Source of the DNA: Clostridia bacterium
GTDB lineage: Bacteria; Bacillota; Clostridia; Christensenellales; Aristaeellaceae
Length of the DNA stretch: 22,521 nucleotides
NCBI GenBank assembly: GCA_024404275.1
Contig: JAKSQG010000009.1
Location: 1-22,521, forward strand
Direction: 5' to 3'
A program made the translations under genes and the position numbers. Numbering within the stretch: the stretch's first letter is position 1; each line of letters begins with the position of its first letter. The notes under the pieces were generated by a model. That model had not been told where the DNA came from. It did not search any database and was given only the letters and a program-made list of their open reading frames with translations. Below are positions 1,219 through 21,991 of the stretch, in pieces.

Positions 1219-2682
1219 GTGCCGCTTTGTTTGCTGTGTCTGTTTTTGATGTGCCTTGCGGTCTTGCTGCTCGTGCCGCATTCAAGAAAAGCCTCCGCCG
1301 GGCAGCGCGCCCGGGATGCTTCCGCGGGGCTCAGCCGTTATGATTATGAGCTGATTTTCCGTCCGGCAGAAAGCACACTGGCCGTCACCATGACGCTTGA
1401 TTACCGCAACGACACGGGCCATGTACTGCAAAGCCTGTGCGTCCGCCTTTGGGCCAACGCCTTTTCTGACGAGGCCTCAAGCCCCGCCGCCCTGTAGGAA
1501 TGGTATGACACCTGTTACCCGGAGGGTTTTTCCGCCGGCGGCTTCACTCCGCAGGGCATCTGGTGGAACGGCGCCGCCGTTTCCTGCACTCCGGAAACGC
1601 AGGATCCCACGGTGCTGAACATTCCCATTCCGCCGCTGTCCCCCGGAGAAAACGGCACACTGCTGCTGCGCGGAGTGCTCTCCCTGCCCCTGTGCGCCCA
1701 CCGCTTCGGACAGACGGCATATGGCGTGCAGATGATGCATGCGCTGCCCACGCTGTCGTTTTATCAGGACGGTGCCTGGCGTACAGACAGCTACAGCGCC
1801 ATCGGCGATCCCTTTATCAGCGGCTGCGCCAACTACACCGTCCATCTCAAAGCACCCACGGACTGGCAGCTGATCTGCGGCGGCAGCTGCGACAAGGCCG
1901 TGAATGCCGACGGAACCATTACCTATACCGTGCAATTGCCGGCTGCCCGTGATTTCAGCTTCGTGTTAAGCCGGGGTCTGGTTGCCGCTTCCGGGCAGGC
2001 TGACGGCATACAGGTCACTGTCTGGGCGCAGGAAAAAGCCGCGGCGCAGCGTGCTGTCCGGGATGCCGTCAAGGCGCTTCGCACCTATGCGGCGTTGTGG
2101 GGCGATTATCCTTACAGTCAGCTGGTGCTGTGCGAAGGCGCATTGCCCTTCAGCGCAGATACCGGCACCGCCTTCACCCTGATCGATCATACGTATTTTG
2201 CCTCCGACCGGGCGGAATCGCTGGAGCTGGTCATCGCCCACGAAACGGCGCACCAGTGGTTCGGCGTCATGGTAGCGTCTGACAGCGTCCGCCAGCCCTG
2301 GCAGGATGAAGCCTTGGCCGAATACGCCATGCTGCGCTACATCCTGAAAAACAGCGGTGCAGCTGCCTGGCGCAATCTGGTCACGCTGCGGGCCGACGCC
2401 CCGATGCGCGAATATATCCCTTTTCCCGTCACTCCCGCCTCTCCGATCGATTATTTCGGCAGCTATGACGTCTATTCCGCCGTGGTGATCGGGCGCGGCT
2501 GCGCCTGCCTGCTGGCGCTTGAAGAAATGTCCGGCAATCCGGATCCCTTCCTGCGCTCATATGCCGATACCTTCGCCTTCGGTTATGCCACACGGGCGGA
2601 TTTTGAATCGCTTCTCTTATCTGTCACCCAAACCGACCTTGCGCCCTTGATGACAGATTATTTGGATACACAAATGAATTGA
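1219..2682 (+). CDS. M1-family zinc metallopeptidase (gluzincin) with an N-terminal membrane anchor; one reading frame containing an in-frame TAG at 1495-1497
   Basis: ORFs 1219-1497 and 1612-2682 are in the same frame. Codons 1498-1611 are open and read EWYDTCYPEGFSAGGFTPQGIWWNGAAVSCTPETQDPT. The M1 N-terminal domain pattern (YDYELIFRP...LDYRNDTGHVLQSLCVRLWANAF) lies upstream of the TAG. HETAH (HExxH) is at 2239-2253, followed by WQDEALAEY, which supplies the third zinc ligand Glu. The stop is TGA. Confidence 0.75.
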
Positions 2683-2701
2683 GAGAAAGGAACCTCCCAT
2701 C

Positions 2702-3685
2702 ATGAAAAAAAGCACCAAAGTCATTCTCTTCGCCCTCATCGCCGTGATGCTGTTGGCCCTGCCCTTTGCCGTTCCCTCCGGCAAGATGCTGAGCGACTAC
2801 CAGTATGAGTGGATGGACTACGCCTGGAACGCCGAAGCCCTGCTCCGTCTGCTGGTGCCTTCCGCCAATGCTGAGGAAGCCGTCTACAGCCTGCCCATCG
2901 ACTTCACCCCCGGCATGACCCCCAATCCCGCCGGCTATTCCGAAGAAAGCTATGAGGATGATTCCATCAGCGTACAGCTGCAGAAGATCGAACAGGACGG
3001 CACCATCTGGCGCGTGGCCTATGTGCAGATCAAGGACGCCTCCCAGCTTCGCACCGGCATTGCCGGCGCCAAGGTGACCTCCAGCAAAACGGCCTTCGTT
3101 TCCACGATGGCCAAAAAGCAGAACGCGGTGCTGGCCATCAGCGGTGACTATTACATCAACGACCCCAACAAGACCAGCTTTGAGTACCGCATGGGCACCA
3201 AGATCCGCAACAAGCCCAACAAGACCAAGGATATCCTGATTATCGATGAAAACGGTGATTTCCATCTGTTTATCAAGTCCGCCGGTGCGGATAACTTTGT
3301 CTCCTCCACCGGTCACACCATCATCAACGCCTTTACCTTCGGTCCGGCGCTGGTCATGGACGGCGTTGAGCTGACCGTCGATAAGGGCTACAGCTACAAC
3401 CCCAACGAAAAAGAACCCCGTCTGGCCATCGGTCAGATGGATACCCTTTCCTATGTGTGTGTGGTCGCCGAGGGCCGCATGAGCACCTCTGCCGGTGCTA
3501 CCGCGCAGCAGATGGCGGACTTCATGTACGCCCTGGGCTGCAAGCAGGCCTTCTGCCTGGACGGCGGCAACACCGCCACCATGGTCTTTAACGGCGGCTT
3601 CTATATGCAGAAGGCGCAGGAAAGAGACCAGAGCGATATCATCTACTTTGCTTCCGCCGTTGACCCGGCCACCTGGGGGAACTGA
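2702..3685 (+). CDS. phosphodiester glycosidase (NAGPA/DUF2233) family protein, membrane-anchored or secreted
   Basis: The 327-aa ORF has an N-terminal hydrophobic segment (VILFALIAVMLLALPFAV). The C-terminal pattern EPRLAIGQMDTLSYVCVVAEGR...GATAQQMADFMYALGCKQAFCLDGGNTATMVF is typical of the family. An RBS (GAAAGGAA) lies upstream. Confidence 0.7.
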   Translation: MKKSTKVILFALIAVMLLALPFAVPSGKMLSDYQYEWMDYAWNAEALLRLLVPSANAEEAVYSLPIDFTPGMTPNPAGYSEESYEDDSISVQLQKIEQDGTIWRVAYVQIKDASQLRTGIAGAKVTSSKTAFVSTMAKKQNAVLAISGDYYINDPNKTSFEYRMGTKIRNKPNKTKDILIIDENGDFHLFIKSAGADNFVSSTGHTIINAFTFGPALVMDGVELTVDKGYSYNPNEKEPRLAIGQMDTLSYVCVVAEGRMSTSAGATAQQMADFMYALGCKQAFCLDGGNTATMVFNGGFYMQKAQERDQSDIIYFASAVDPATWGN

Positions 3686-3687
3686 AA

Positions 3688-4659
3688 ATGAACGAAGCCC
3701 TGTTTGAAACCTTTGAGGATACCGCCTCGTTTTCCTTCCTCGGCGCCAATGTGTTTCTGTACGGTCTGCTGTGCGCCGGCGGCGTGCTGGTGACCCTGCT
3801 GCTGTTTGCGGCAATGTGCAAAAAGGCCCGCATGACGGACGGCACCGTCCTGGTCTTCGGCGCCCTGGCACTGCCCATCGGTCTGGTGGTCAGCCGCATC
3901 CTGTTCTGCCTGCTGGACTTTGGCTTTCACGCCGTGTTCTCCCCGCGGGCGGCCGTTTCCTTCTGGGGCGGCGGCTACTCGATGGTGGGTGCCATCGGCG
4001 GCGCTGCGCTGGCCGCGGTGCTGACCGCCAAAAACCGCAAGGTCAGCGCGGCCGCACTGCTGGATATTCTGGCCGTTTCCTTCTTTGCTTTCATCGCCTT
4101 TGAGCGCATCGGTGAGAGCTTTACCGAATTGATGGGCCGCAGCCGCACGCTGGTGGAAGAGGTCGTCAAGAGCCCCTTCTTCTCCGAAACGGATGGCTAC
4201 GACTGGAAGCTCAAAACCTATCAGTTCGAATATCTGACCGCCTTCGTGCTGATGTTTGTCTGCTTCTGCTTCTATATGAAAAACAGGTCCCTGAAGGGCG
4301 ACACCGCGCTGCTGGCCTTGCTTCTGTTCGGCGCCACCCAGACTTTCTGGGAAAGCCTGCGTTTTGACAGCCACATGCGCCGTTCCTTTGTGGATATGCA
4401 GCAGATTCTGGCCGCCATCATGATGGCCATTCCCGCAGTTCTCTTTACCCTGCGCCGCACAGCAAAAGAAAAAAAGAATCTGCCGCTTTATATCATCATC
4501 GGTGTACTGGCCCTGGATGTGGGCGGTATCGTGGGCATTGAGTTCATGATCGACCGTACCGAAACAAGCCGTCTGCTGCTCTACGCCATGTATGCACTGC
4601 TGCTGGCTGCGCCCTGCGCCCTCAGCCTGATCAACCGAAAGAAGGCCCTGAACGCATGA
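3688..4659 (+). CDS. polytopic membrane protein, possibly of the prolipoprotein diacylglyceryl transferase (Lgt)-like family
   Basis: The 323-aa ORF has multiple hydrophobic helices. The segment VSRILFCLLDF...FWGGGYSMVGAIGGAALAAVL resembles the Lgt G-rich core. This assignment rests on recall only. Confidence 0.45.
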   Translation: MNEALFETFEDTASFSFLGANVFLYGLLCAGGVLVTLLLFAAMCKKARMTDGTVLVFGALALPIGLVVSRILFCLLDFGFHAVFSPRAAVSFWGGGYSMVGAIGGAALAAVLTAKNRKVSAAALLDILAVSFFAFIAFERIGESFTELMGRSRTLVEEVVKSPFFSETDGYDWKLKTYQFEYLTAFVLMFVCFCFYMKNRSLKGDTALLALLLFGATQTFWESLRFDSHMRRSFVDMQQILAAIMMAIPAVLFTLRRTAKEKKNLPLYIIIGVLALDVGGIVGIEFMIDRTETSRLLLYAMYALLLAAPCALSLINRKKALNA

Positions 4660-4865
4660 CCAAAGAAAAAGTCGCCCGCATCAATGAGCTGGCCAGAAAG
4701 AAAAAGACCGTGGGGCTGACCCCCGCCGAACTGGAAGAGCAGGCAGCCCTGCGTCAGGAATATCTGGCCGATTTCCGCGCCGGTTTCCGTGAACAGCTGA
4801 ACAACACCTACATACAGTACGAGGACGGTCACAGGGAACGCCTGACCGAAAGGAAGCCTCAATGA
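4656..4865 (+). CDS. DUF896 (UPF0291/YnzC-like) small protein
   Basis: The 69-aa ORF contains KVARINELARKKKTVGLTPAELEEQAALRQEYLADFR, which matches the family signature. It has ATGA overlaps with both neighbouring genes. Confidence 0.8.
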   Translation: MTKEKVARINELARKKKTVGLTPAELEEQAALRQEYLADFRAGFREQLNNTYIQYEDGHRERLTERKPQ

Positions 4866-5350
4866 TCCTCTCCACCCTGTGCTACATTGAGCGGGAAGGG
4901 CAGTATCTGATGCTGCACCGCGTCAAAAAAAACAAGGATGTCAATGCCGGCAAGTGGATCGGTGTGGGCGGCAAGCTGGAAAAGGACGAGTCGCCCGATG
5001 AGTGCGTTGCCCGTGAGGTCATGGAAGAAACAGGCCTTACGCTGACCCGCCCCGTGCCCCGCGGTAACATCACCTTCATCTCGGAAGGCTGGGAGAGCGA
5101 AATCATCTTTCTCTACACCGGCGAGGCAGAAGGTGAAGTGAAGCCCGACTGCGATGAAGGCGTGCTCCGCTGGGTGCCCATCGACCGCATCGACGAATTG
5201 AATCTCTGGGAAGGCGACCGCGTTTTTCTGCGTCTGCTCAGAGAAAGCCGCGATTTCTTTTCCCTCAAATTATCCTATGTGGGCGATACGCTGGTCAGCT
5301 GTGTTCTGAACGGCACGCCCATGACCCCTGTCGGAGAAAAGCAAGCATGA
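4862..5350 (+). CDS. NUDIX hydrolase (MutT/8-oxo-dGTP diphosphatase-like)
   Basis: The Nudix box GGKLEKDESPDECVAREVMEETGL fits G-x5-E-x7-REUxEExGU. The ORF is 162 aa. Confidence 0.85.
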   Translation: MILSTLCYIEREGQYLMLHRVKKNKDVNAGKWIGVGGKLEKDESPDECVAREVMEETGLTLTRPVPRGNITFISEGWESEIIFLYTGEAEGEVKPDCDEGVLRWVPIDRIDELNLWEGDRVFLRLLRESRDFFSLKLSYVGDTLVSCVLNGTPMTPVGEKQA

Positions 5351-6354
5351 AAAAAATACTGCTCCCGCTGCTGATGCTTGTGCTTCTGTGCACAGGGGCA
5401 GCCGCCGAAACAGCCCTGTATACCACCACCACCTCGCTGGATGTGTACATTCGCTCCGAAATGGACAAAAAGTCCTCTCCCGTCGGCTCCGCCGGCAAAG
5501 GGGCTACGGTGCAGGTCTATGCCCTCTATCCCGAATGGGCCTATGTGGGCTACAACGGTGCCCGGGGCTACATCAACCGGGCTCACCTCAACGTCGGACG
5601 ACCGATAGACAAAGTCAACACCCCGCCGTGGGGCGTGGAGGTTTACACCTACACCGCCACCGTTGGGCAGAACGGCGCCTCGATTCTTTCCGCTCCCGAA
5701 GCCGGCAGCGAACCTCTGTTCAGCCTGACGCCGGGCACAAAAATATCCGTCCTCGGCTTTGAAGACGGATGGGCGGTGCTCAATTATTACCGCCAGTACG
5801 GTTATGTGGACGCAGCCTCCTTCTGTGAACTGCAGCCCATCTGGCCGGACGCCTTCAGCGGCACAGACGAGGCTCCCATTGCCGCCTTTACTTCCTATTA
5901 TGTCATCAACTCCACCGAGCCGATGGCACACGGCAAGGAGATCAATATCGGCGTCAACTGCAAGGCCATGAGCGGCGAAACGCTTGCTCCGGGAAAAACG
6001 CTGAATTACAACACCCATTACGGCCCCTTCAAAGCCAACAAGGGTTACATCAAGGGTCCGGTGCTGATTACCGGCGGCTGGAGCCTCGGTTGGGGCGGCG
6101 GTGTGTGTCAGGTCTCCAGCACGTTGTACAACGCGGTGCTGCAGCTGCCCGGTGTGACCATTATCGATCGCCGCGCGCACGGCGCGGACGGCGCCGCCTA
6201 TCTGTGCCTGGGCATGGATGCGGCAGTTGGCAACAACACCAAGGGCATCAACTTTATCTTCCGCAACGATTACGAGTTCCCCATCCGCTTTGAAGCATTG
6301 GCGCAGGATGGCGCGCTGTACATTGCCATTTACCGCGTTACGGCAGGATCGTGA
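5347..6354 (+). CDS. secreted SH3b-domain / VanW-domain protein
   Basis: It has a signal peptide (MKKILLPLLMLVLLCTGAAAE) and two SH3b-like segments (GATVQVYALYPEWAYVGYNGARGYI; GTKISVLGFEDGWAVLNYYRQYGYV). The VanW core is GGGVCQVSSTLYNAVLQLPGVTIIDRRAH. Confidence 0.8.
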   Translation: MKKILLPLLMLVLLCTGAAAETALYTTTTSLDVYIRSEMDKKSSPVGSAGKGATVQVYALYPEWAYVGYNGARGYINRAHLNVGRPIDKVNTPPWGVEVYTYTATVGQNGASILSAPEAGSEPLFSLTPGTKISVLGFEDGWAVLNYYRQYGYVDAASFCELQPIWPDAFSGTDEAPIAAFTSYYVINSTEPMAHGKEINIGVNCKAMSGETLAPGKTLNYNTHYGPFKANKGYIKGPVLITGGWSLGWGGGVCQVSSTLYNAVLQLPGVTIIDRRAHGADGAAYLCLGMDAAVGNNTKGINFIFRNDYEFPIRFEALAQDGALYIAIYRVTAGS

Positions 6355-6784
6355 CCCGGTTTCCATGTTGGCACAGGGCAAACACCTGCGCAATATCCTC
6401 TGCGTTCAAAGCGATGCAGCCGGCTGTCCAGTCGCTGCCGCTGCCGCCTCCGTGGATACAGATCTCTCCGCCCAGGGCTGTGCCCCAGGGCGGTCTTTTT
6501 TGTTCCCGTTCACACTGACGGATATATTCCACCAGCTGCTCTTCCGCCCGCAGGCGCAGCGCATCGACAGAAGAAGGATAGCTGAGACCCAGAGACTGTC
6601 CGAATTTGCCGTGCTCCTTGCAAAGGCAGATATAATCCGCGCCCTCAGGCGTGCGCCCGTCTCCGGCACATTCCTTGCTGCCTTCCGGATGGTTCCCCAG
6701 AGCGATACGGCAGCAAAAAACAGCCGATCCGCTGTCATCCAGCACCGTCAGCTGTCTTAAATGTTTGATGATCTCGATTCTCAC
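6338..6784 (-). CDS. L,D-transpeptidase (YkuD/YafK-like) catalytic-domain protein
   Basis: The 148-aa ORF contains ICIHGGGSGSDWTAGCIALNAEDIAQVF, which fits the H-G...GC(I/V) active-site pattern. The stop is TAA. Its 3' end overlaps the convergent VanW gene by 17 nt. Confidence 0.65.
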   Translation of the reverse strand: MRIEIIKHLRQLTVLDDSGSAVFCCRIALGNHPEGSKECAGDGRTPEGADYICLCKEHGKFGQSLGLSYPSSVDALRLRAEEQLVEYIRQCEREQKRPPWGTALGGEICIHGGGSGSDWTAGCIALNAEDIAQVFALCQHGNRVTILP

Positions 6785-7461
6785 AGGAAAAGCCCCGTCA
6801 ACACAATGGGCAGCAGCACCGCCGGCAGCAGGTTGCCCACAGGAATATGCTCCTTGCGGATCAGGTTGAGACCGATGCCCATGATGAGCACACCGCCGGC
6901 AGCACTCATTTCGGTCACCACCGCCGCAGTCAGCACAGGTTCCACCGCTCCGGCGAGCAGCGTGATAAAGCCCTGATACACCAGCACTGTCACCGCGGAA
7001 GCCATGACGCCGATACCGCAGCTGCCCGTCAGGAAGATGGCCATCACGCCGTCCAGCACGGATTTGGCAAAGATGGTGCTGTAATCGCCGCGAAGACCGG
7101 CGTCAAGCGAGCCTACAATGGCCATGGCGCCCACACAGTACAGCAGGGATGCGGTCACAAAGCCCTTGGCAAAGCTGCCCTCCTCGCCCTTGCTGAGGCG
7201 GCTTTCAATGGTCGTTCCGAGGCGTCCCAGCCATTTTTCAATATCGATGAGACAGCCGATAAAGCCGCCGATCGCCACGGAAATGATGACGATCAGCATG
7301 TTGGCGGTTTTGAGGGCGGTGCTGAGACCAATGACCACCGTGCACAGACCAAGACCCTTGGAAATGGCATCGTTATAGCGTTCGGGCAGCTTGCCGTGCA
7401 GCAGCAGACCCACCAGGGATCCCAGGATAATCACAGCGGCATTTACAATTGCGGCAATCAT
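6781..7461 (-). CDS. DUF554 (YqgA/YdfK) family membrane protein
   Basis: The 226-aa ORF contains MIAAIVNAAVIILGSLVG...AMAIVGSLDAGLRGDYSTIFAKSVLDG...GGVLIMGIGLNL, characteristic of DUF554. A GGAGGA RBS lies upstream. Confidence 0.85.
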   Translation of the reverse strand: MIAAIVNAAVIILGSLVGLLLHGKLPERYNDAISKGLGLCTVVIGLSTALKTANMLIVIISVAIGGFIGCLIDIEKWLGRLGTTIESRLSKGEEGSFAKGFVTASLLYCVGAMAIVGSLDAGLRGDYSTIFAKSVLDGVMAIFLTGSCGIGVMASAVTVLVYQGFITLLAGAVEPVLTAAVVTEMSAAGGVLIMGIGLNLIRKEHIPVGNLLPAVLLPIVLTGLFL

Positions 7462-7483
7462 TTTTATCCTCCGTACATTGGAA

Positions 7484-7519
7484 GTCCCTCAGGCGTTTGC
7501 ACTGAGGGACTGTTTTTTT
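7484..7519. other. GC-rich stem-loop between degV and the DUF554 gene
   Basis: The stem is GTCCCTCAG (7484-7492) paired with CTGAGGGAC (7502-7510), with a 9-nt loop. The T-run (7513-7519) is on the plus-strand side, although both flanking genes are on the minus strand. Confidence 0.35.
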
Positions 7520-8396
7520 ACTTTGCGCGTACGTTCTCTCCGCCGAAGAAGAACAGAGCGATGGTACCGGGACCCACATGGCTGCCCGTCACCGGTTCAT
7601 AATCGACGGTCATGATCTCTTTGGGCGGATGGTTGCGGCGCAGCATTTCCGCCAGCTGCGCGGCTTCGGCTTCGCAATCGGCATGAGCGATGCACACGGT
7701 CTGTTCGCCCGGGTTGACCACCAGCTCATCATACTTCTGCGCCAAGGACTGAACGGCCTTTTTGCGTCCGCGCACAATGCCGAAGTTGACGATACGGCCC
7801 ATTTCATCGCCCTTGAGCAGGGGCTTGATGTTGAGCATGGAGGTGACAAAGGCCACTGCGCTGTGGAGGCGTCCCGTATGACTGAGGTATTTCAGATCAT
7901 CCACCGTGAACACCTGATAGATGTGCTGCACCCTGCTGCGCAGGAACTCCTCGTTATCGGCAATGGACATGCCCTGATCGCGGTTTTCCACAGCCAGCAT
8001 CACAAAAAGACCTTCGCCGAGGGAAGCGGCACGGGTATCGATGGAAACGATCTTCCGCTCCGGATACTTTTCCTTAAGTGCCTCTGCGGCGGTCATGGAA
8101 GAGTTATAGGAGCCGCTGATGCCGGAAGACATCGAAATGAACAGGATGTCCTGCCCCTGAGAGAGATACTTCTCAAAGCAATACTCAAACGTCTGCGGAT
8201 TGATCTGGGAGGTGGTCACCTTCATGCCCGCCCGCATATCGTCATAGAACTTTTTGCCGTCAAATACAGTGCTGTTAAGGCACTGCATCTCGACCCCCTC
8301 CACAAAATAGGAGAAGGGAGCGATATCCACGCCGTGCTCCATCAAGTAAGAGGAAGGTAAATTCGCCGAGGTATCGGTAATGATCTGATAGCTCAT
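7518..8396 (-). CDS. DegV family fatty-acid-binding protein
   Basis: The 292-aa ORF starts MSYQIITDTSANLP and contains TTSQINPQTF...FISMSSGISGSYNS and the C-terminal THVGPGTIALFF pattern typical of DegV. Confidence 0.9.
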   Translation of the reverse strand: MSYQIITDTSANLPSSYLMEHGVDIAPFSYFVEGVEMQCLNSTVFDGKKFYDDMRAGMKVTTSQINPQTFEYCFEKYLSQGQDILFISMSSGISGSYNSSMTAAEALKEKYPERKIVSIDTRAASLGEGLFVMLAVENRDQGMSIADNEEFLRSRVQHIYQVFTVDDLKYLSHTGRLHSAVAFVTSMLNIKPLLKGDEMGRIVNFGIVRGRKKAVQSLAQKYDELVVNPGEQTVCIAHADCEAEAAQLAEMLRRNHPPKEIMTVDYEPVTGSHVGPGTIALFFFGGENVRAK

Positions 8397-8420
8397 GTAT
8401 CTCTCCGATGCTGATCATTC

Positions 8421-8460
8421 AAAAAATGGAAAAAAAGCCGCTGCACCGGGCAGCGGCTTT
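8421..8460 (-). terminator. rho-independent terminator after rpmA
   Basis: On the minus strand, AAAGCCGCTGC-CCGGT-GCAGCGGCTTT is followed by TTTTTTCCATTTTTT. Confidence 0.85.
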
Positions 8461-8472
8461 GGGAGCATAAAA

Positions 8473-8757: not shown

Positions 8758-8778
8758 GGTAGCTTCCTCCGTTTTTAT

Positions 8779-9497: not shown

Positions 9498-9504
9498 CCC
9501 CGAT

Positions 9505-10408: not shown

Positions 10409-10411
10409 AAT

Positions 10412-14499: not shown

Positions 14500-14518
14500 G
14501 AGTAAAAGAGGTATTGCT

Positions 14519-15211
14519 ATGACCATCGGCCTGCTTTGCGCGATGAAATCCGAGATTGAATCGGTCATCGCCCACCTGACCATTGAAAAAGAAACCGAGA
14601 TTGCCCGCACCACCGTGATGGAGGCGCACATCGGCGATCTTCATATCGTGGCCGCCGCCACCGGCATCTGCAAGGTGAACGCCGCCATTACCGCCCAGCT
14701 GCTCATCGACCGCTGGCAGGTGGAGCGCATCATCATGGTGGGCGTCGCCGGCGGCATGGATCCCCGTCTGGGCGTACACGCGCTGGCTTTCTCCGAGCGT
14801 CTTGCGCAGCACGATGTCGACCCCGGCATGCTGCGTCACCGTCCCACGCCCGATGCGGGCTATTTCCCCGGTGACGAGAAACTGTTGGACATCTGCCGCC
14901 GTCTGAACGAAGAAGGCAAGCTGCTCTACCCCGCCTTCTTCGGTACCATGGTCAGCGGTGAGCAGTTCATCGTGCAGGAGGGCCGTCAGCAGATCATCGA
15001 CGCGTGGCATCCCCTGTGCGTGGATATGGAATCCGCAGCCGCCGCCCATGCCTGCTATGCCAATGGCATCCCCTGCGTGGCCATCCGCGCCATGAGCGAT
15101 ACCGGTGACGAAAGCGGCATGGACTCCTTTGAACGCAACGAAGTCAGTGCCGCCGAAGCTGCTGCCGGTGCCGCCGCCGCATTGCTGGAAGCGCTGGCGC
15201 AGGAAAAATAA
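14519..15211 (+). CDS. mtnN: 5'-methylthioadenosine/S-adenosylhomocysteine nucleosidase
   Basis: The ATG at 14519, preceded by AAGAGG, is the likely start within ORF 14429-15211. The protein reads MTIGLLCAMKSEI...ATGICKVNAAITAQ...MVGVAGG...CVDMESAAAAH...AIRAMSD, which matches the Pfs/MtnN motifs. Confidence 0.85.
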   Translation: MTIGLLCAMKSEIESVIAHLTIEKETEIARTTVMEAHIGDLHIVAAATGICKVNAAITAQLLIDRWQVERIIMVGVAGGMDPRLGVHALAFSERLAQHDVDPGMLRHRPTPDAGYFPGDEKLLDICRRLNEEGKLLYPAFFGTMVSGEQFIVQEGRQQIIDAWHPLCVDMESAAAAHACYANGIPCVAIRAMSDTGDESGMDSFERNEVSAAEAAAGAAAALLEALAQEK

Positions 15212-15236
15212 GCTTCTGCCCAAACCGATTTACAAC

Positions 15237-15274
15237 AAGGACGATGGAATTCATTCCATCGTCCTTGCTTTTTT
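15237..15274 (+). terminator. rho-independent terminator after mtnN
   Basis: AAGGACGATGGAAT/ATTCCATCGTCCTT forms a perfect hairpin, followed by GCTTTTTT. Confidence 0.8.
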
Positions 15275-15282
15275 ATCAGGCA

Positions 15283-15316
15283 TTAAAAAGGAGCCGCGGC
15301 ACAAGGCCGCGGCTCC
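15283..15316 (-). terminator. rho-independent terminator after the MBL-fold gene
   Basis: On the minus strand, GGAGCCGCGGC-CTTGT-GCCGCGGCTCC is followed by TTTTTAAT. Confidence 0.75.
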
Positions 15317-15328
15317 GGGGGTGTGAAA

Positions 15329-17644
15329 TTACTTCACGAAGGTGGCAGCGGGAGTTTCAGCCAGCACGATGTCGCTGACCTTATCCAGCTGGACGGTGTA
15401 GGTGGCGCCGATCTCGATGGCATCCAGCAGAGCCTGAGCTTCTTCGAGGGAGCTCACGCGAGCGGTACGAACGATTTCGGTCCAGGCAGTGTCGGTGGGA
15501 CGGTTGGCAATTTCAACGGGGCCGCTGGTCCACTGCACAGCGTAGTTATCAGCGCCGTAGAAGTTGGTGTCATAGTCGACCTTGCCGGCGTAGTCATCCT
15601 TCACATGCCCGACGATCTGCACGAAGTAGCTGTCGGGATCATGCACGAAGGCATCCTTGGGAATAACGAAGCCGTTGGAGAGTTCGAAGCCATAGATGTT
15701 GAACATGCCGGCGAACTCTTCGGAGGGGTTCTGCCACATATCGAAGCCGTGCAGGATGCAGGCATCCAGAACTTCCAGCTCGTAGGTGCCTTCAGCACGC
15801 TTGTAGGGACCGTAGGCTTCGATGGTCTGCAGGGTCTTGGAGGAAGCGGAGGAGCGGAAGCCGCCATGCTCGAAGAACAGGTCGCCGACAGCATCCTTCT
15901 CGTTTACCCAATCCTGGAAGAAGCTCTCATAGGTGTTGTAGGAGATGCGCTTCTCGCAGAAGTTCTGGATAGCATCCAGACCTTCGGTCAGCACGGACAG
16001 GAAGGGGATGTTCTTCTCTTCGCAGGCCTTGTCGATATCGTACCCGGGATCCTGGTTGGAGTGCTGGGGTACGTTGCACACGTAGTCAGCGGAAGCGGCA
16101 GCCATGGGGGCGGCAACGCTCTGGATGTACTTCAGGCCGTCAACATAGGCCAGACGGGTCCAACCGGACTTCAGGTTGTTCTGAGCGCCGTAGCCGCCCA
16201 TGTAGCAGAAGGCAGCGGTCTTGCCGGCTTCCAGCACCTTGTCGTTTTCGGTAGCGGTGAGACGGAACACGAAGGAAGCGGTATCAGCGGTGTGGCCGGT
16301 GGTCAGGAAGGGATACACTTCAACGCCGCCGCCGAAGTCATTCTGCCACTCATACCAGTTGTCCCAGGCGGTCAGGGTGTAGGCAACAGACTTGTCGGTC
16401 AGAACCGGGCCGATTTCCGGATAGCCCAGATAGTCGAAGCCGCCCTTGTTGTTGCTGGAGGTCTGCACAGCGGCATACTGCTCGCCGTAGGCAATGTTGC
16501 CCTGACCAACCTGATAGTGGTTGATCATGGTCAGGTTCTCGACCAGAGCCTGATAATGGTCGCCGTGGCCATGGGTCAGCAGGATCTTATCCACTTCACG
16601 GGGATCGAAGCCCAAGGCTTCCAGGTTCAGCCAGTACTGGTAAGAGGCGCAGGTGTTGCCCTGGTCCAGCAGGGTCATGGTGCCATCATCGCCCAGGAAC
16701 AGATAGATGTTAGTGTAGGAATCGCCGATGGAGTAGAAGCGGTCAGCCATCACTTCGAAGGGGATGCAGGAACCGTCGAAGCCGTAGGAGTGCTTTTCCT
16801 TGGCAGCGGACACTTCAGGCATCCAGCCCACGCCATCATAGGTGGTGTTGTCGGGGGTGACCAGCTTGCTGGCAGCCAGCACTTCGGGGTTCTTGTAGAC
16901 ATACAGCTGAGCGACCTTGGCGGTCTCGTAGGTGGTGTAGTCGCCGTCGAACACAGCGATCACAACGTACTTCTCGGGCTGGTAGTAGATCTCGCCGTCT
17001 TCGCCCACGGGGCAGACAACGATCTCTTCCAGGGTGGTGGGTTCGGCAGCCCAGCTGCCGGTCACCAGGGTGCCTTCGACGGTGGTGGTGTTATCCACGG
17101 CGAAGATCTGGCAGTCATCGGCCAGGGTATAGGTCTCTTCGAAGATGTTGGTGCAGTGGTTGCCATCGCCCACGGTGGTGGTGCGGGCATCGGCATCGGT
17201 GGCCAGCACCCAGGCCTGAGCCATCATGGCGCCGGGCTTGCCGCCCTCGCCGGTCAGCTCAACGCCGTACTTGGCGGAGTCCATGAAACCGATGCTGGGG
17301 CCGAAGCCGCCGGCCATCTGCATCAGGCGCTCGATGTTGATGATGTTGCCTTCGGCATCCATCACGAGCTCGATGCTGTTGTTGGCCTGGCACAGGGCTA
17401 CCACGGCTTCAGCGCGGGTAACGCCGGTCAGGGCATTGGTCTGGGTCAGGGGAACGGTGGTGACGGTCTTCTTCTCGAAGGTACCGGCTTCGACGATCTC
17501 GACGGTCACGCAGCCGTTTTCATCCACCGTGGCGGGGGTGACGACCCAGCCCCAGGTGCTGGAGGCGGGCACGGATTCCGCGACAGCCAGGGCGGCGACG
17601 CAGATCAGCAGCACGCACAGGAGGATAGAAGCGATCTTCTTCAT
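15329..17644 (-). CDS. secreted multidomain MBL-fold metallo-hydrolase (771 aa)
   Basis: It has a signal peptide (MKKIASILLCVLLICVAALAVAES). The central motif LLTHGHGDH fits HxHxDH, with a later TTGHTADT. About 330 aa N-terminal and about 250 aa C-terminal have no motif I recognise. The stop is TAA and a GAGAGG RBS lies upstream. Confidence 0.8.
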   Translation of the reverse strand: MKKIASILLCVLLICVAALAVAESVPASSTWGWVVTPATVDENGCVTVEIVEAGTFEKKTVTTVPLTQTNALTGVTRAEAVVALCQANNSIELVMDAEGNIINIERLMQMAGGFGPSIGFMDSAKYGVELTGEGGKPGAMMAQAWVLATDADARTTTVGDGNHCTNIFEETYTLADDCQIFAVDNTTTVEGTLVTGSWAAEPTTLEEIVVCPVGEDGEIYYQPEKYVVIAVFDGDYTTYETAKVAQLYVYKNPEVLAASKLVTPDNTTYDGVGWMPEVSAAKEKHSYGFDGSCIPFEVMADRFYSIGDSYTNIYLFLGDDGTMTLLDQGNTCASYQYWLNLEALGFDPREVDKILLTHGHGDHYQALVENLTMINHYQVGQGNIAYGEQYAAVQTSSNNKGGFDYLGYPEIGPVLTDKSVAYTLTAWDNWYEWQNDFGGGVEVYPFLTTGHTADTASFVFRLTATENDKVLEAGKTAAFCYMGGYGAQNNLKSGWTRLAYVDGLKYIQSVAAPMAAASADYVCNVPQHSNQDPGYDIDKACEEKNIPFLSVLTEGLDAIQNFCEKRISYNTYESFFQDWVNEKDAVGDLFFEHGGFRSSASSKTLQTIEAYGPYKRAEGTYELEVLDACILHGFDMWQNPSEEFAGMFNIYGFELSNGFVIPKDAFVHDPDSYFVQIVGHVKDDYAGKVDYDTNFYGADNYAVQWTSGPVEIANRPTDTAWTEIVRTARVSSLEEAQALLDAIEIGATYTVQLDKVSDIVLAETPAATFVK

Positions 17645-17770
17645 GGTGTATTCCTCTCTCTCAAATATTTCCGGCTCATTCTTCCTTTTCAGGCATCAGC
17701 ATCGGCCGTTCATGCTGAACTTGTTTTTCGTTCCCGGTTCGATCCCGAAAACGTCACTGCAATACTAACA

Positions 17771-17785
17771 GCGAAAAGCGTGCCA
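17771..17785 (-). promoter_or_regulatory. sigma-54 (-24/-12) promoter driving the MBL-fold gene
   Basis: The minus strand reads TGGCACGCTTTTCGC, compared with the consensus TGGCACG-N4-TTGC. The GG-N10-GC spacing is exact and there is one mismatch in the -12 element. It lies about 125 nt upstream of the ATG at 17644. Confidence 0.7.
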
Positions 17786-17961
17786 AAATATGGATACCGG
17801 CAAAAAATTTTTCCCAACCCTATTTTTCAGCATCCATCTTTCATGACCTGCATGCAATTGAAAACGAATGAAATGAAATTGATTCGTGCTGCAACCTTCG
17901 GACCTCCTGCCGTTTTCGGATATACATTCCCCAATTCCATTCTGTTGTTCCAATGTAATGT

Positions 17962-17985
17962 CTGTCAAAAGCTCCTTCCTGACAG
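17962..17985. promoter_or_regulatory. inverted repeat CTGTCA-N12-TGACAG, a candidate activator (UAS) site
   Basis: The arms are a perfect 6 bp. The repeat lies about 180-200 bp upstream of the minus-strand sigma-54 promoter. Confidence 0.3.
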
Positions 17986-17996
17986 GTATTTGCGTT

Positions 17997-18017
17997 CTTT
18001 TCAACATGTTTCCATTT
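17997..18017. promoter_or_regulatory. candidate UAS motif copy B (TTTTCAACATGTTTCCATTT)
   Basis: It nearly matches 20359-20376 upstream of the second sigma-54 promoter. The core AACATGTT is palindromic. Confidence 0.35.
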
Positions 18018-18110
18018 CGTACCGTATGAAACCATCTGAAACCTATTGGGACATTTTGAACATTTTGAACACCATATGTCTATTATCAACAGCTTTGATT
18101 GAAACAAAAT

Positions 18111-18151
18111 AAAAGGAAAGCAAAACCATGACCGGTTTTTGCCTTCCTTTT
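18111..18151 (-). terminator. probable terminator after the sigma-54 activator gene
   Basis: A long imperfect hairpin pairs 18111-18127 with 18134-18151. On the minus strand it is followed by ATTTTGTTTC. Confidence 0.5.
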
Positions 18152-18238
18152 CGTATTCAAACGGGTTCAAAATACGGTTTTATCACCCATTGTCTTTCTC
18201 TGCAGCAAATGATAGTTTCAAAAGCGTGCAGTGCGCTT

Positions 18239-20158
18239 TCATTCAATTCCATACTCCCGGATTTTTCGCCACAGGGTGGTTTTGCTCAAGCCCAGCATAT
18301 CCGCCGCCTCTTTCTTGGTCTTGGCGATCAGAAGTGTATCCATGATCTTCTGGCGTTCCTTATCGCGCAGGGAGATGGTCGGAACCGCAGCGACCTGCTC
18401 TTCCTGAGGAGCCTCCTTCTGCGGGAGTACATTTTTCACATCGCCGAGGGTAATAAAGGTAGTGGAGCACAGCACCGCCAGCTGCTCGGAAACATTGCGC
18501 AGCTCACGCAGATTGCCCGGCCAGGGATAGCGCCCGATCAGGGTGGCGGCGTCCGGAGACAGACGGATCTATGTTTTACCGAATTTGGCCGCATAATAAT
18601 TGAGATAATGCTGCATGATGAGTGCTGCATCGCCGTCCCTGCGGCGCAGCGGAGGCAGATTGATGGAAAGCACCTTCAGACGATAATACAGATCCTCGCG
18701 AAATTTGTTTTCCGCGATCAGCTGCGTCAGATCCTTGTTGGTGGCGCAGATGATGCGCACATCCACATCGATCACCTTATCGCTGCCGATACGGCGCACT
18801 TCGCGTTCCTGAATGATGCGCAGCAGACGGGTCTGCATCTCCAGCGGGATCTCACTGATCTCATCAAGGAAAATGGTGCCGGTGTGCGCCGACTCAAAAA
18901 AGCCTGCTTTGCCGTTTTTGTTGGCGCCTGTGAAGGCGCCGCCCACATAACCGAACAGCTCGCTTTCAAACAGCGAGGGAGAAATGGCCGCACAGTTGAC
19001 CGCCACAAACGGTCTGTCGGCACGCTCGCTTTCGTTGTGGATGGACTGCGCTACCAGCTCCTTGCCGGTACCTGTCTCGCCAAAGAGCAGGATATTGGAA
19101 TCCACCTTCGCGTACTGACGAGCCTGATGGATCATATCCTGCAAAACAGTACTTTCACCCAGAATATCCCTGAAATGATACTTGGCCTTGTTGGATTTTT
19201 CGTTGCGGACCGTGGGCATATTTCCGCTGACCACATTGCTTTCACGCACCTTGCGCATGGTGATAACGGTGCCCAGCTGACGGTCGGCATCAGTCATGCT
19301 GCTGCCGCTCATGCGGATGTATTCCCCGCCGATGCGCACGACTTCATCATGAAAGGGCTTGTTATAGCTGAGAAGATTCAGCAGATTGCCTTCCGGCAGC
19401 ACTTTTTCGGTCGGACGACCGATCATTTCACTGCTCTTGCGGCCCAGCAGCATTTCCGCCACCGGATTGAAGGCACGCACAATACCGTTCTGGTCGACGG
19501 CGATGACACCGTCGCTGACGTGATTCAGCACCGCACGGTTTGTTGCGGATGATTCGCGCTCCGCCAAAAAGACCTGTGCGCAGCGTTTGGCCTCCGTAAT
19601 GGCCAGAAAGATCGATTCCGCGGAGGAGATCAGTAAGCCGCTGGGCACGCCATACTCCTTGGCAAATTCCATGGTATGATAGCCGCCGATGATCATTTTT
19701 GCGCCGTTCTGAACGGCTTCCCGTACGCCCTCACGCAGGCTGTCCCGGACAATATCCGGTGTGGTAAACGCCATGACCGGAAAGGGATATTCCGCCCCGA
19801 GATAATCCACGCAGCAGGTCATGTTGGCGGTACCGACCACGCCGATGGCCATATCCCCGTAGCGTTCGACCGCCTGACGGATGGAGATGCGCAGATCGTT
19901 TGCGGTGATCGGAATCTCAACAATAGGCGTCATCGGGTTCTGATTGCGGATCGTAGAGGCTGTGCCGCCGCGGCTGACGACCACATCCGCCTTGAAATGC
20001 TTGGCCAGAATAATGGTCGGCGAGACCTCGCATTCCACGGTATAACGATAATCCAGCCCGTACAGATTGGGTCCGAAGACCTCATTATGCATGGACCAAG
20101 CCTGTTTGACAAAGGGGATCATCGTAGGGGACGGCAGCGCAAAGTCAATGTGAACCAT
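18239..20158 (-). CDS. sigma-54-dependent transcriptional activator (PrpR_N - PAS - AAA+ - Fis-type HTH); one frame containing an in-frame TAG at 18569-18571
   Basis: ORFs 18569-20158 and 18239-18475 share one frame, and the codons between them are open. The read-through sequence is ...YYAAKFGKT[TAG]IRLSPDAATLIGRYPWPGNLRELRNVSEQLAVLC...KKEAADMLGLSKTTLWRKIREYGIE. It has Walker A GETGTGKE, the GAFTGA loop, Walker B FLDEI and the R-finger region. The WPGN(V/L)REL and HTH segments lie after the TAG. The stop is TGA. Confidence 0.85.
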
Positions 20159-20358
20159 GTTTTTTCCTCCAGAACCGACGCGGCATTCCTTTTCGCCTGA
20201 AAAGGGTGTTTCCTCATTCTCTATGCAAATCCCGTGCCATCTTCATTCCATTATGTTTCAAAAATATTCAAGTTTTGGAAGTCTTCAGCCGGCACGCCGC
20301 ATCCAATGCCGTGGCAGGATGATTATACCGTTTTTTTGATTCAAATAATAGCATTTTA

Positions 20359-20376
20359 TTTCAACTTGTTTCATTT
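20359..20376. promoter_or_regulatory. candidate UAS motif copy A (TTTCAACTTGTTTCATTT)
   Basis: It lies about 90 bp upstream of the plus-strand sigma-54 promoter and matches 17997-18017 with one substitution and one indel. Confidence 0.35.
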
Positions 20377-20462
20377 AAGCAAAGAGGGTGTGCAGGAGAA
20401 AAAGACATTGATTCTTCTTCCTATTAAAAAAAATGGTCAGCAGCATCCTTTCGTCAACTGTT

Positions 20463-20478
20463 TGGCACATTTTTTGCA
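20463..20478 (+). promoter_or_regulatory. sigma-54 (-24/-12) promoter driving the membrane-protein/MoxR operon
   Basis: TGGCACATTTTTTGCA matches TGGCAC-N5-TTGCA exactly, with GG-N10-GC spacing. It lies about 107 nt upstream of the GTG at 20585 and is divergent from the activator gene. Confidence 0.75.
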
Positions 20479-20523
20479 GATAATCTCAGTGGAGTATATT
20501 GTTTCCCGAAAATTGAAGATCCT

Positions 20524-20545
20524 GCATCCCGTTTTTGCGGGATGC
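20524..20545 (+). other. 8-bp GC-rich hairpin in the 5' UTR of the sigma-54-dependent operon
   Basis: GCATCCCG-TTTTTG-CGGGATGC. No U-tract follows, so it is not a terminator. Confidence 0.3.
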
Positions 20546-20584
20546 TGTCCTGCCCCATCCTCTGCATAGAAGGAGGCCGATCGG

Positions 20585-21991
20585 GTGATAAAAGAACTGA
20601 TTCCCTTTCAAAAGCGTCTGAACCGGCAGGCATTGCTGCGTAGTACAGCGCTTGCCGCCGCCATCGGAGCTGGCACTGCCGCCTGCGTGCTGCTCGTTTA
20701 TCGGCTACTGACCGATACCCGCAGTCCCATCCTGCCGCTCATCGCAGGTACAGCCGCGGCGCTGATCGCATTCTTGATTTTTTATCTGTTTGTGTTCCGT
20801 GCGAATGAAAAAAAGACCGCCGCGTATCTTGACCGTCAGGGATTGCAATAGCGTGTGCTGACCATGGTCACGAATCAATCTCTGAATGACCCCATCAGTC
20901 AGCTGCAGCGGCAGGATGCCCTGCGCCATATCGCGAAGCTCTCCCCCCGCGACATCAAAGTGAAAGCACCCGTGAAAAGTCTGATTGCACTGCTGTGCAT
21001 CGTTGTGCTGATCACGCCGCTTGCGATCATTCCCGGACCGTATCTGACTTTGAACAACGGTGAGGATGCCGCACTGCGGCGCTCGCAGGAAGCGCAGCTG
21101 GTCGATCAGCTGCTGGAAGACCTGCGCCGCCGCATTGAAGAATCCTCCCTCAGTGAGGAAAGGCGGCAGGAGCTGCTCGCCTGGCTGGACAGTCTGTCCG
21201 GTGATGCGCAGATCGATATGAAGCAGCTGGCGGATATCATCGCGCAGGCGCAGCAGATGGAAGAACACATCGCCAACGAGGAATCCTACGGCGCGGTGAT
21301 GGCATAGATGCTGGCGCAGCCGCACTTTGCAGGTTTGGCCAAAGCCATCCTCAACGCCGACATCGACGAGATGAACACCTACTTTGATGAGCTGGAAGCC
21401 AGTCTTGTTGTGCTGGAGCAGGAGCCGCTGTGCGCCGAGCTGATGGAGATCCGCAATGAAGCGATGGCCATCAACGCCCGCGCGTAGGAAGACGAAGGTG
21501 ACACCTCCGTCACCGGCGCCTTCAATACGCTGGCCAGCGGTTTCTATCTGGCATCCATCGGCGGCTTTTCCCACGAGGATACCGTTCAGCTGGTACATGA
21601 GGACCTGTTCCAGTGCCGCCTGACCATTCTGGGTATGCTGCAGGCGATGAGCTCATCGGGTAACGGCAGTGTGGACCGTGAACGTGCACAGACCGATGTA
21701 TCCGTCAAGCAGGAGACACACGAAGAAAACGGCACTGCCGCCGGCAAGACGGAACAGGACGAAAACGGCATCCTCAGCGGCGGCATTGACGGCATTGCCT
21801 CGGAAAGTCTGGGCGCAGCCATCCGTTTCAATCAGCCCGATGAGATGATGTGGGATCCCGACCGCAAGGAGACCCTTCCCTACCGTGAGGTATACGGCAA
21901 GTATTACCTGCAATTGCTCGAAGGCATGGAGAACGGTCTGTGGGACGAAAACACCTATGACGAGATCAACCGTTATTTTAATGGATTGTAA
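20585..21991 (+). CDS. membrane-anchored coiled-coil protein of unknown function; one frame with three in-frame TAGs (20849, 21305, 21485)
   Basis: ORFs 20585-20851, 20855-21307, the 59-codon stretch 21308-21484 and ORF 21635-21991 are all in the same frame and separated only by TAG. An AGGAGG RBS lies 8 nt before the GTG at 20585. There are three predicted TM helices followed by charged helical repeats. The final stop is TAA. It sits immediately upstream of the MoxR ATPase gene. Confidence 0.6.

Follow-up and report, generated by a model that had tools for sequence, protein, structure and literature searches.

Evidence for UAG as a rare sense codon, most probably for glutamate, in a lineage of Clostridia

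Comparison of in-frame TAG codons, stop codons and aligned residues between two related species makes it likely that UAG no longer acts as a terminator but is a rare sense codon, most probably one for Glu, in a lineage that takes in at least one sister species besides the uncultured species of the window. By the window we mean the whole 22,521-nucleotide stretch of DNA that was analysed, which is an entire contig of the NCBI MAG GCA_024500545.1. A fuller proposition, which we hold to be on balance probable, is that we have here the first two-stop code with UAG for Glu in a natural lineage of cellular bacteria. Codon capture would be at an early point in it: TAG stops would be gone completely, and exchange with GAG/GAA would be bringing TAG back into genes, at about 1% of Glu positions.

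In-frame TAG codons and the genes that carry them

A sequence-only reading of the window had reported five in-frame TAGs in three genes, and when the sequence was re-read all five were found where it had placed them (Table 1). Its further observations also held: the three genes carry no TGA, TAA or frameshift interruption, the base 3' of the five TAGs is G, A, C, A and G with no common context, and the coding signal continues past every TAG, with a codon-usage log-likelihood above zero over the next 50 codons.

Table 1. Coordinates of the genes and in-frame TAG codons of the window.
Feature	Position	Strand	Remarks
22 complete genes	565..21991	both	Pfam and codon-usage gene finder
M1-family metallopeptidase gene	1219..2682	+	stop TGA; one in-frame TAG; PF01433 downstream of TAG
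In-frame TAG no. 1 (M1 peptidase)	1495..1497	+	sister species GAT, Asp
Sigma-54-dependent activator, PrpR_N-PAS-AAA+-HTH_8	18239..20158	-	stop TGA; one in-frame TAG
In-frame TAG no. 2 (sigma-54 activator)	18569..18571	-	sister species GAG, Glu
First gene of MoxR/DUF58/BatA/VWA operon, 468 aa	20585..21991	+	stop TAA; three in-frame TAGs
In-frame TAG no. 3 (MoxR-operon gene)	20849..20851	+	sister species GAA; TAG retained in L002
In-frame TAG no. 4 (MoxR-operon gene)	21305..21307	+	sister species GAG
In-frame TAG no. 5 (MoxR-operon gene)	21485..21487	+	sister species GAA

The sister species (GCA_045599485.1, 58 kb read, 83-90% nucleotide identity to the window lineage) has an uninterrupted M1 peptidase of 487 aa (P0123, 89% identity), an intact activator of 639 aa (P0121) and an intact 468-aa open reading frame for the first gene of the MoxR operon. 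In the window activator, Pfam matches to PF25601 (AAA lid) and PF02954 (HTH_8) extend across the TAG and beyond it; the NCBI annotation holds only a truncated 529-aa product of this gene (MCQ2453198.1). The first gene of the MoxR operon has a GTG start preceded by an AAGGAGG ribosome-binding site, and its product, which has two N-terminal hydrophobic stretches by reading of the sequence, gave no significant match to Pfam and 736 homologs at E <= 0.001. Public annotation splits this gene into four fragments. One more in-frame TAG, at 20567, precedes the ribosome-binding site and GTG start and is outside the gene.

The window lineage is represented by five assemblies of different accessions at 93-100% identity, those besides the window's MAG being ENA ERZ27247129 (L002), ENA ERZ27247179 (L007), Logan SRR14246009 (L027) and Logan SRR27361835 (L029). 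TAG no. 1 is retained in L007 (98% nucleotide identity) and L029 (96.7%), no. 2 in L002 (95.9%), and no. 4 in both L002 (95.9%) and L027 (93%); no. 5 is retained in L002 and is Val in L027. Assembly or consensus error, an outcome that would have undone the earlier claim, is contradicted by this recurrence of the window TAGs in independent assemblies at 93-98% nucleotide identity. Purifying selection is likewise the same on both sides of the TAGs. Against L007, dN/dS of the M1 peptidase is 0.084 upstream and 0.134 downstream of its TAG, and against L002 the four segments of the MoxR-operon gene that lie between TAGs give 0.087, 0.129, 0.032 and 0.125. Values downstream of TAGs within the TAG-bearing lineage are 0.03-0.13, as they are upstream, and those against the sister species are 0.07-0.19. 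Judged from these alignments, the window TAGs are neither assembly errors nor pseudogene lesions.

Stop codons and the residue at TAG sites

Among the 22 genes whose 3' ends lie inside the window, 12 stop at TGA, 10 at TAA and none at TAG, a recount that agrees exactly with the earlier one; the GC content of the genome is 57%. By itself this is only suggestive of reassignment, since the probability of 0/22 is 0.013 at an expected TAG usage of 18% (the outgroup rate) and 0.10 at 10%. The sister genome also has no TAG stop in 53 complete genes, over one contiguous stretch of 58 kb (p = 2.7e-5 at 18%, 0.004 at 10% and 0.066 at 5%), and the aligned stop pairs of the two lineages (TGA-TGA 24, TAA-TAA 14, TAA-TGA 3) include TAG in none. 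These counts come from two syntenic chromosomal regions rather than whole genomes, so that genes stopping at TAG may occur elsewhere. In three more distant relatives (L008, L014 and L020) TAG is the stop of about 6 of 33 genes (~18%), at the expected C-termini, and the TAG-free stop set is therefore not universal among relatives.

The sister species has five in-frame TAGs of its own, at positions unlike those of the window, in genes for an MBL hydrolase, an Iso_dh-like protein, a phosphodiesterase and an AP_endonuc_2 protein (two TAGs); the trait is thus found in both species, each with its own sites. In total, 13 TAG sites in 10 genes were found in 13,412 aligned codons, none of them common to both lineages. 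The genes are functional by the continuation of Pfam domains and homology past the TAGs, and their products are the peptidase, sigma-54 activator, membrane protein, MBL hydrolase, GntR, Iso_dh-like, phosphodiesterase and AP_endonuc_2 proteins. The residue opposite TAG in the other lineage is Glu at nine sites (GAA 5, GAG 4) and Asp at three; one of the 13 pairs with Gln. Nine or more Glu would be expected with a probability of 2e-8 from the background frequency of Glu, and of 8e-5 if TAG is taken to arise from neighbour codons one step away according to how often each is used. Lys is opposite none of the 13, though AAG makes up 17% of those neighbour codons.

More distant homologs are informative at two of the window TAGs, which fall in columns that are 92-94% Glu/Asp and hold a single Gln each. 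The column of TAG no. 1 reads E59/D51/G4/N2/S1/Q1 plus one gap among 120 homologs (acidic in 110), and that of no. 3, which falls within the conserved motif G-L-x-E-R-x-x-T, reads E82/D16/N3/A2/Q1 among 104 full-length homologs (acidic in 98). The other three columns are variable and uninformative on the residue (no. 2, Q41/H13/N12/D8/S7/E7 in 119 distant homologs; no. 4, A52/E16; no. 5, G36/E16). The three Asp partners exceed the ~0.5 expected from Glu-Asp exchange, and Asp would fit the sister-residue pattern almost as well as Glu. With alignment to one amino acid seen, as in Codetta-type analysis, in a small sample of 13 sites, the amino acid inserted at TAG is most probably Glu and less probably Asp; Gln, Lys and pyrrolysine are disfavoured. 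Reading the TAG columns of homologs, a check that the sequence-only reading had proposed, points to this residue, which it had left unnamed. Its core claim, that the organism translates TAG, draws support from the retention of the TAGs, the purifying selection around them and the presence of TAGs without TAG stops in the sister species.

TAG accounts for 5 of 6,483 codons in the window and 5 of 18,200 in the sister species, or about 0.03-0.07%. It was not seen in the ribosomal-protein genes of the region, and the genes that bear it are all moderately conserved accessory genes. This rarity and the absence from ribosomal-protein genes suggest an early stage of codon capture; the accessory character of the carriers is also compatible with inefficient, leaky decoding.

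Alternative readings

The rival that survives best, although we consider it unlikely, is one in which RF1 is kept and UAG is translated part-time by an amber-suppressor tRNA or by efficient near-cognate reading; TAG stops would then have disappeared on account of the harm that read-through does, with a few TAGs persisting inside low-expression genes. That TAG is very rare and confined to accessory genes, with none in the region's ribosomal-protein genes, fits such weak decoding, and PMC12626013 reports ambiguity of amber codons in Pyl-encoding methanogens. However, purifying selection persists past the TAGs even in the gene with three of them, which calls for read-through of fair efficiency, since 30% at each of three sites would leave less than 3% full-length product. 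Nor would near-cognate read-through favour Glu, the usual insertions at UAG being Gln, Tyr, Lys and Trp.

A genome-wide assignment of UAG to pyrrolysine, as a bacterial counterpart of archaeal Code 34, we regard as very improbable. Where pyrrolysine machinery is constitutive in archaea, TAG no longer serves as a stop and in-frame TAGs are scattered through ordinary genes (bioRxiv 10.1101/2024.09.30.615893), a pattern that the absence of TAG stops and the rare internal TAGs superficially match. Pyrrolysine sites would nevertheless be expected either to favour no canonical residue at all or to favour a lysine-like residue, whereas Glu or Asp is the partner at 12 of the 13 TAG sites and Lys at none, and two sites lie in the strongly acidic columns described above; a bulky lysine derivative is not expected to replace acidic residues preferentially. 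Gene tables for ~95 kb of lineage sequence contain none of pylT, pylS and pylBCD, and no methylamine methyltransferase gene (mtmB, mtbB or mttB) was found in the window or related loci.

Similarly little credence can be given to a standard code with recent pseudogenes, made by nonsense mutations such as oxidative G-to-T changes that turn GAG into TAG. It is true that GAG and TAG differ by one such change and that the sister species has Glu opposite four of the five TAGs of the window; at one locus of an unrelated clade (L009), moreover, a lone TAG stands against CAG in a 99.5%-identical strain and could be an ordinary nonsense mutation. But because GAA is commoner than GAG among the Glu codons (250 versus 174), G-to-T hits should give mostly TAA, and the probability that all five would be TAG is 0.012. 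None of the 10 affected genes has a frameshift, TAA or TGA interruption, the TAGs are retained over 2-7% nucleotide divergence with dN/dS of 0.03-0.13 downstream, and the sister species has other TAG sites in other genes and no TAG stop. The mixed lesions, indels and relaxed selection of pseudogenes are not what these genes display, and this reading is already strongly disfavoured; that the interruptions are not independent pseudogenisations, as had been proposed from the sequence alone, is upheld by the retained TAGs, the equal selection on both sides and the TAGs elsewhere in the sister.

Consensus or assembly error, or a contig of a TAG-recoded phage or ciliate mis-binned into a bacterial MAG, is barely credible: phages and ciliates are the best-known cases of TAG recoding and contamination of MAGs is a recognised caveat (bioRxiv 10.64898/2026.04.02.715157), but the same TAGs occur in five assemblies of different accessions, TAA is a normal stop here, unlike in ciliate codes that reassign TAA together with TAG, and the gene content is that of a cell, with rplU-prp-rpmA and lgt in the window and murF, ddl and RNase J in the syntenic flanks. 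A search of 50,697 phage records and 72,556 plasmids gave no similarity except a 259-nt rpmA-like match, and with the housekeeping content this speaks against a TAG-recoded phage or mobile element. Programmed site-specific read-through also finds no support, since TAG positions differ between the sister species and share no 3' base context.

Proposed decoding, significance and comparison with known codes

If UAG is indeed read as Glu, a tRNA with a CUA anticodon would be charged with Glu, its simplest origin being a duplicated tRNA-Glu(CUC/UUC); alternatively, a CUA tRNA derived from tRNA-Gln might be charged by a non-discriminating GluRS and escape transamidation. Release factor 1 would be lost or unable to compete, so that termination at UAA and UGA, the two stops left, would fall to RF2. 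Between the sister lineages, TAG sites are gained and lost through exchange with Glu codons and, less often, Asp codons. ARAGORN found no tRNA gene of any type, and so none with a CUA anticodon, in the window and L001-L003, L006, L007 and L027-L032 (~95 kb); no prfA/prmC locus was found in ~95 kb of lineage sequence, from partial MAG data that cannot show genomic absence. Three mechanisms had been put forward earlier; pyrrolysine-type recoding is disfavoured by the acidic residues at TAG sites, and the other two, a dedicated CUA tRNA together with loss of RF1, and strong suppression in the presence of RF1, cannot be told apart on the present sequence.

These results point to a natural bacterial code with TAG as an amino-acid codon, which is not yet established for cellular bacteria. 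To our knowledge, every accepted stop-codon reassignment in cellular bacteria concerns UGA, while reassignments of UAG have been described in phages, eukaryotes and organelles and, to pyrrolysine, in archaea. The earlier remark that no TAG reassignment other than to pyrrolysine is established in free-living bacteria agrees with reviews and screens up to 2026, which give UGA only, and we found no published bacterial precedent in the literature. If the proposed reading is true, a free-living, GC-balanced Clostridia lineage would provide a new bacterial genetic code, RF1 could become dispensable in nature and not just in engineered strains, and an early-stage case would be available for testing codon-capture against ambiguous-intermediate models. 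It might also offer synthetic biology a natural Glu-accepting tRNA(CUA)/GluRS solution. The annotation of these MAGs under table 11 would be wrong for the affected genes, and coding-density detectors would miss codes of this type. TAG makes up less than 0.1% of codons, and its sites turn over between sister species.

The bacterial UGA codes (table 4, UGA to Trp, in Mycoplasmatales and others; table 25, UGA to Gly, in Absconditabacteria/Gracilibacteria) likewise turn a stop into a sense codon genome-wide in cellular bacteria, leave two stops, and cause standard annotation to truncate or split proteins. Here, by contrast, the codon is UAG, the amino acid would be Glu and the factor expected to be dispensable is RF1 instead of RF2; UGA-code genomes are AT-rich or reduced, whereas this one is balanced in GC and its new sense codon is still very rare. 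TAG-recoded phages (table 15-like; Lak, crAss-like and related gut phages) share in-frame TAGs in intact genes, decoded, it is thought, by a suppressor tRNA(CUA), but those genomes are viral and as a rule have Gln for TAG and a late-gene bias, while the present sites lie in a chromosomal housekeeping region without phage similarity and disfavour Gln (1/13 sister residues; 1/120 and 1/104 in the conserved columns). Archaeal Genetic Code 34, in which all TAG is pyrrolysine (Kivenson et al., bioRxiv 10.1101/2024.09.30.615893), is also prokaryotic, with TAG never a stop and sparse in ordinary genes, and such codes escape density-based detection because coding density is little lowered; the present case differs in being bacterial, in its acidic residue pattern and in the lack of pyrrolysine machinery and methylamine methyltransferases in ~95 kb. 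The peritrich ciliate nuclear code (table 30, TAA and TAG to Glu) has the same meaning for TAG and shows that biology can provide a tRNA which has a stop anticodon and accepts Glu; it belongs to eukaryotes and also reassigns TAA, which here ends 10 of 22 genes and is never in frame. Finally, the proposed end state resembles that of engineered E. coli C321.deltaA and related RF1-knockout strains, in which TAG stops are replaced, RF1 is dispensable and UAG is free for a CUA tRNA, but those strains are man-made and use UAG for non-canonical amino acids, whereas this code would be natural and would specify a canonical one.

In-frame TAG codons in two species

A sequence-only reading of the window had located five in-frame TAGs in three genes and proposed that TAG is decoded there as sense. 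All five positions were confirmed in the sequence; TAG is indeed the sole interruption, with no TAA, TGA or frameshift in any of the three genes, and the TAGs are followed by G, A, C, A and G, as reported. The stop tally over the 22 complete genes was likewise reproduced (12 TGA, 10 TAA, no TAG). Coding character also persists past the TAGs, as had been claimed: when codon usage was scored as a log-likelihood with the window's own genes as training set, the 50 codons 3' of each TAG scored clearly positive. For the gene upstream of MoxR, the start codon is the GTG at 20585, preceded by the ribosome binding site AAGGAGG, and an in-frame TAG at 20567 therefore lies outside this gene. Public table 11 annotation splits or shortens the TAG-containing genes, as can be seen in the table below.

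The window has a G+C content of approximately 57% and carries, in addition to the complete genes, two that are cut by its ends. The Pfam-supported content includes rplU-prp-rpmA, lgt, a NUDIX hydrolase, VanW, YkuD, DegV, a GMP-synthase-like protein, an MBL hydrolase, the sigma-54 activator and the start of the MoxR operon. Very long stop-free ORFs run on the strand opposite real genes. In these GC1 exceeds GC3, Pfam gave no match where tested, and they resemble the shadow ORFs expected in a GC3-rich genome more than genes. Four of the five TAGs fall within the activator and the first gene of the MoxR operon. The intergenic region between these two contains two perfect, outward-facing matches to the sigma-54 consensus TGGCAC-N5-TTGCA (0.06 expected by chance), and the probable target of the activator is the MoxR/DUF58/BatA/VWA operon, with its own gene perhaps a second one.

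A sister species (GCA_045599485.1) is represented by the 109 kb contig JAZRWA010000086.1, which is syntenic with the window's lineage at 83–90% nucleotide identity and of which 58,131 contiguous bases were analysed. Its 53 complete genes stop at TGA (33) or TAA (20) and never at TAG, which has a probability of 2.7e-5 at the outgroup TAG-stop rate of 18%, 0.004 at 10% and 0.066 at 5%. Its 18,200 codons include five in-frame TAGs, one each in genes for an MBL hydrolase, an Iso_dh-like protein and a phosphodiesterase-family protein and two in an AP_endonuc_2 gene. Three further TAGs of the window's lineage, in GntR, phosphodiesterase and AP_endonuc_2 genes, are found on a 23.7-kb Logan contig. 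None of the resulting 13 sites is common to the two lineages, and TAG codons therefore turn over as ordinary sense codons do. Aligned stop pairs between the two species were TGA-TGA (24), TAA-TAA (14) and TAA-TGA (3), with none involving TAG. The AP_endonuc_2 gene, of 281 codons, holds three of the 13 sites, of which the sister species contributes two and the window's lineage one, and it contains both of the Asp(GAC)-TAG pairs found outside the window.

Coordinates of the features discussed, with table 11 gene calls where available
Feature	Sequence	Position (strand)	Remarks
M1 peptidase	window	1219–2682 (+)	TAG at 1495; called as 92+356 aa
Sigma-54 activator	window	18239–20158 (-)	TAG at 18569; 18569–20158 deposited as truncated 529-aa MCQ2453198.1
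First gene of MoxR operon	window	20585–21991 (+)	TAGs at 20849, 21305, 21485; called as 88+147+59+118 aa
Sigma-54 consensus match	window	20224–20239 (-)	
Sigma-54 consensus match	window	20463–20478 (+)	
rpmA (L27) match to MT837018.1	window	8485–8743	78% identity
Antisense ORF	window	15287–18112 (+)	942 codons
Antisense ORF	window	9641–11251 (-)	537 codons
Antisense ORF	window	18113–19552 (+)	480 codons
MBL gene	sister species (L001)	12530–14845	called as 380+379 aa
THF riboswitch (RF01831)	sister species (L001)	355–453 (-)	82 bits
AP_endonuc_2 gene	window's lineage (L031)	14516–15361	
AP_endonuc_2 gene	sister species (L032)	14518–15360	
Lone in-frame TAG	relative (L009)	1806–1808	194-codon gene

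The amino acid at TAG

The alignment of the two species comprises 13,412 codons. Of its 13 TAG sites, nine are matched by Glu in the other species (GAA five times, GAG four), three by Asp and one by Gln. The probability of at least nine Glu partners is 2e-8 when Glu makes up about 7% of the background, and 8e-5 when TAG is modelled as arising from the eight sense codons one step away according to their usage (GAG 18%, CAG 23%, AAG 17%). The sequence-only reading had left the amino acid unassigned and suggested aligning homologs at the TAG columns. These proved to be acidic at two of the window's TAGs and variable at the other three. At the M1 peptidase TAG, 120 homologs gave 59 Glu, 51 Asp and one Gln, and at the TAG at 20849, within a G-L-x-E-R-x-x-T motif, 104 full-length homologs of the MoxR-operon protein gave 82 Glu, 16 Asp and one Gln. 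The columns that vary in distant homologs are those of the activator TAG, the remaining two TAGs of the MoxR-operon gene and the sister's MBL TAG; a PDB search on the phosphodiesterase TAG column found nothing useful.

Because Glu lies opposite nine of 13 TAGs, and two columns are acidic across their families, glutamate is the best assignment from these alignments. Aspartate is a possible alternative: among acidic codons TAG is reachable only from GAG, so that Glu partners would be expected under an Asp meaning too, and the three Asp partners are more than ordinary exchange between Glu and Asp would give (approximately 0.5). The other candidates, Gln, Lys/Pyl, Tyr, Trp, Leu and Ser, are disfavoured.

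Selection on the TAG-bearing genes

Pseudogenisation would make the TAGs nonsense lesions. Compared with ENA assembly ERZ27247129 (95.9% nucleotide identity), the four inter-TAG segments of the MoxR-operon gene have dN/dS values of 0.087, 0.129, 0.032 and 0.125. For the activator, dN/dS within the TAG-bearing lineage is 0.048 both before and after its TAG. The peptidase, compared with ENA ERZ27247179 (98%), gave 0.084 upstream and 0.134 downstream; values against the sister species were 0.07–0.19, with 0.057 for a control gene. Moreover, since GAA outnumbers GAG among Glu codons (250 vs 174), random G-to-T damage of Glu codons should yield mostly TAA, and five TAGs out of five has a probability of 0.012. 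With dN/dS equally low on both sides of the TAGs within the TAG-bearing lineage, and no indels, TAA or TGA lesions, we conclude that these genes are not pseudogenes, in agreement with the earlier argument that independent pseudogenisation was unlikely.

Assembly or consensus error, which had been raised as a possible artefact, is rejected because identical TAGs recur in assemblies under other accessions. ERZ27247129 has the activator TAG and all three of the MoxR-operon gene, and the peptidase TAG is present in both ERZ27247179 and Logan SRR27361835 (96.7%); Logan SRR14246009 (93%) has the TAG at 21305 and Val at the 21485 site. Site-specific programmed read-through is likewise rejected, as TAG positions differ between the sister species and the following bases share no pattern. 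Ciliate contamination is rejected for a window in which TAA is a normal stop, and phage contamination for a contig with housekeeping genes and no meaningful phage or plasmid similarity. The search of phage and plasmid records returned only a 259-nt rpmA-like match to MT837018.1, a 7,982-nt 'Bacteriophage sp.' record from human faeces that is probably bacterial DNA wrongly labelled as phage.

Decoding, distribution and known reassignments

Within the available sequence of these two species, TAG ends no gene, sits in genes under selection and exchanges with Glu codons; the central proposal of the sequence-only reading is thus supported, and narrowed to glutamate. By analogy with code 4/25 bacteria and RF1-deleted E. 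coli, UAG would be read by a CUA-anticodon tRNA carrying Glu, and RF1 would be lost or ineffective, leaving RF2 to serve both remaining stops. RF1 reads UAA and UAG, and RF2 reads UAA and UGA, so that RF2-only termination would use exactly the two stops observed. Many Firmicutes have a non-discriminating GluRS, an enzyme tolerant of variation at anticodon position 36. Because of this tolerance, one may speculate that acceptance of a CUA anticodon by GluRS, or a tRNA-Gln-derived suppressor kept Glu-charged, was an easy step. ARAGORN found no tRNA(CUA) in the window and most of the fetched loci, including all long ones, the only hits being tRNA-Arg(ACG) and tRNA-Ala(GGC) in distant relatives; approximately 95 kb of lineage sequence contained no tRNA gene of any type. 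An Rfam scan at the gathering threshold matched only a THF (tetrahydrofolate) riboswitch, which in the sister species precedes an ECF-type transporter S component. TAG makes up 0.03–0.07% of codons and is confined to accessory genes, which fits either early codon capture or still-inefficient decoding.

Relatives from metagenomes and GTDB, approximately 53–60% identical in one marker protein (GMP-synthase-like), were also compared. In three loci (L008, L014, L020) about six of 33 genes have a TAG stop where the C-terminus is expected (CHAP, MiaA, MarR). Ten others (L004, L005, L009–L013, L016, L019, L022), at about 54–60% identity in that protein, have no TAG stop in the loci fetched, with 12–24 genes each in the longer ones, and represent largely a few near-identical species. 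A single-protein NJ tree nests L008 and L014 among these TAG-free relatives and does not separate users from non-users. Clade-wide loss of TAG stops is therefore not established and we confine the claim of recoding to these two species, the window's and its sister, although avoidance may be wider. L009 has a lone in-frame TAG where L011, L013 and L019, at 99–99.5% identity, have CAG (Gln); a recent nonsense mutation, an error or TAG tolerance in that separate clade could each explain it.

According to the Codetta screen of >250,000 genomes (PMC8629427), all known bacterial stop reassignments concern UGA, and neither a 2026 k-mer screen of approximately 2.7 million assemblies (bioRxiv 10.64898/2026.04.02.715157) nor the gTranslate preprint (2026) reports a bacterial TAG sense reassignment. 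Reading of all TAGs as Pyl is described in archaea only, TAG otherwise being a stop in bacteria (Kivenson et al., bioRxiv 10.1101/2024.09.30.615893). Our full-text literature search, with incomplete coverage, returned no bacterial case of UAG read as Glu, and an earlier description is possible. Specialists would find TAG as Glu in a bacterial lineage highly surprising. It would resemble known stop-codon reassignments in that a stop codon has turned sense, and would differ from them in the combination of UAG, Glu and a bacterial host.
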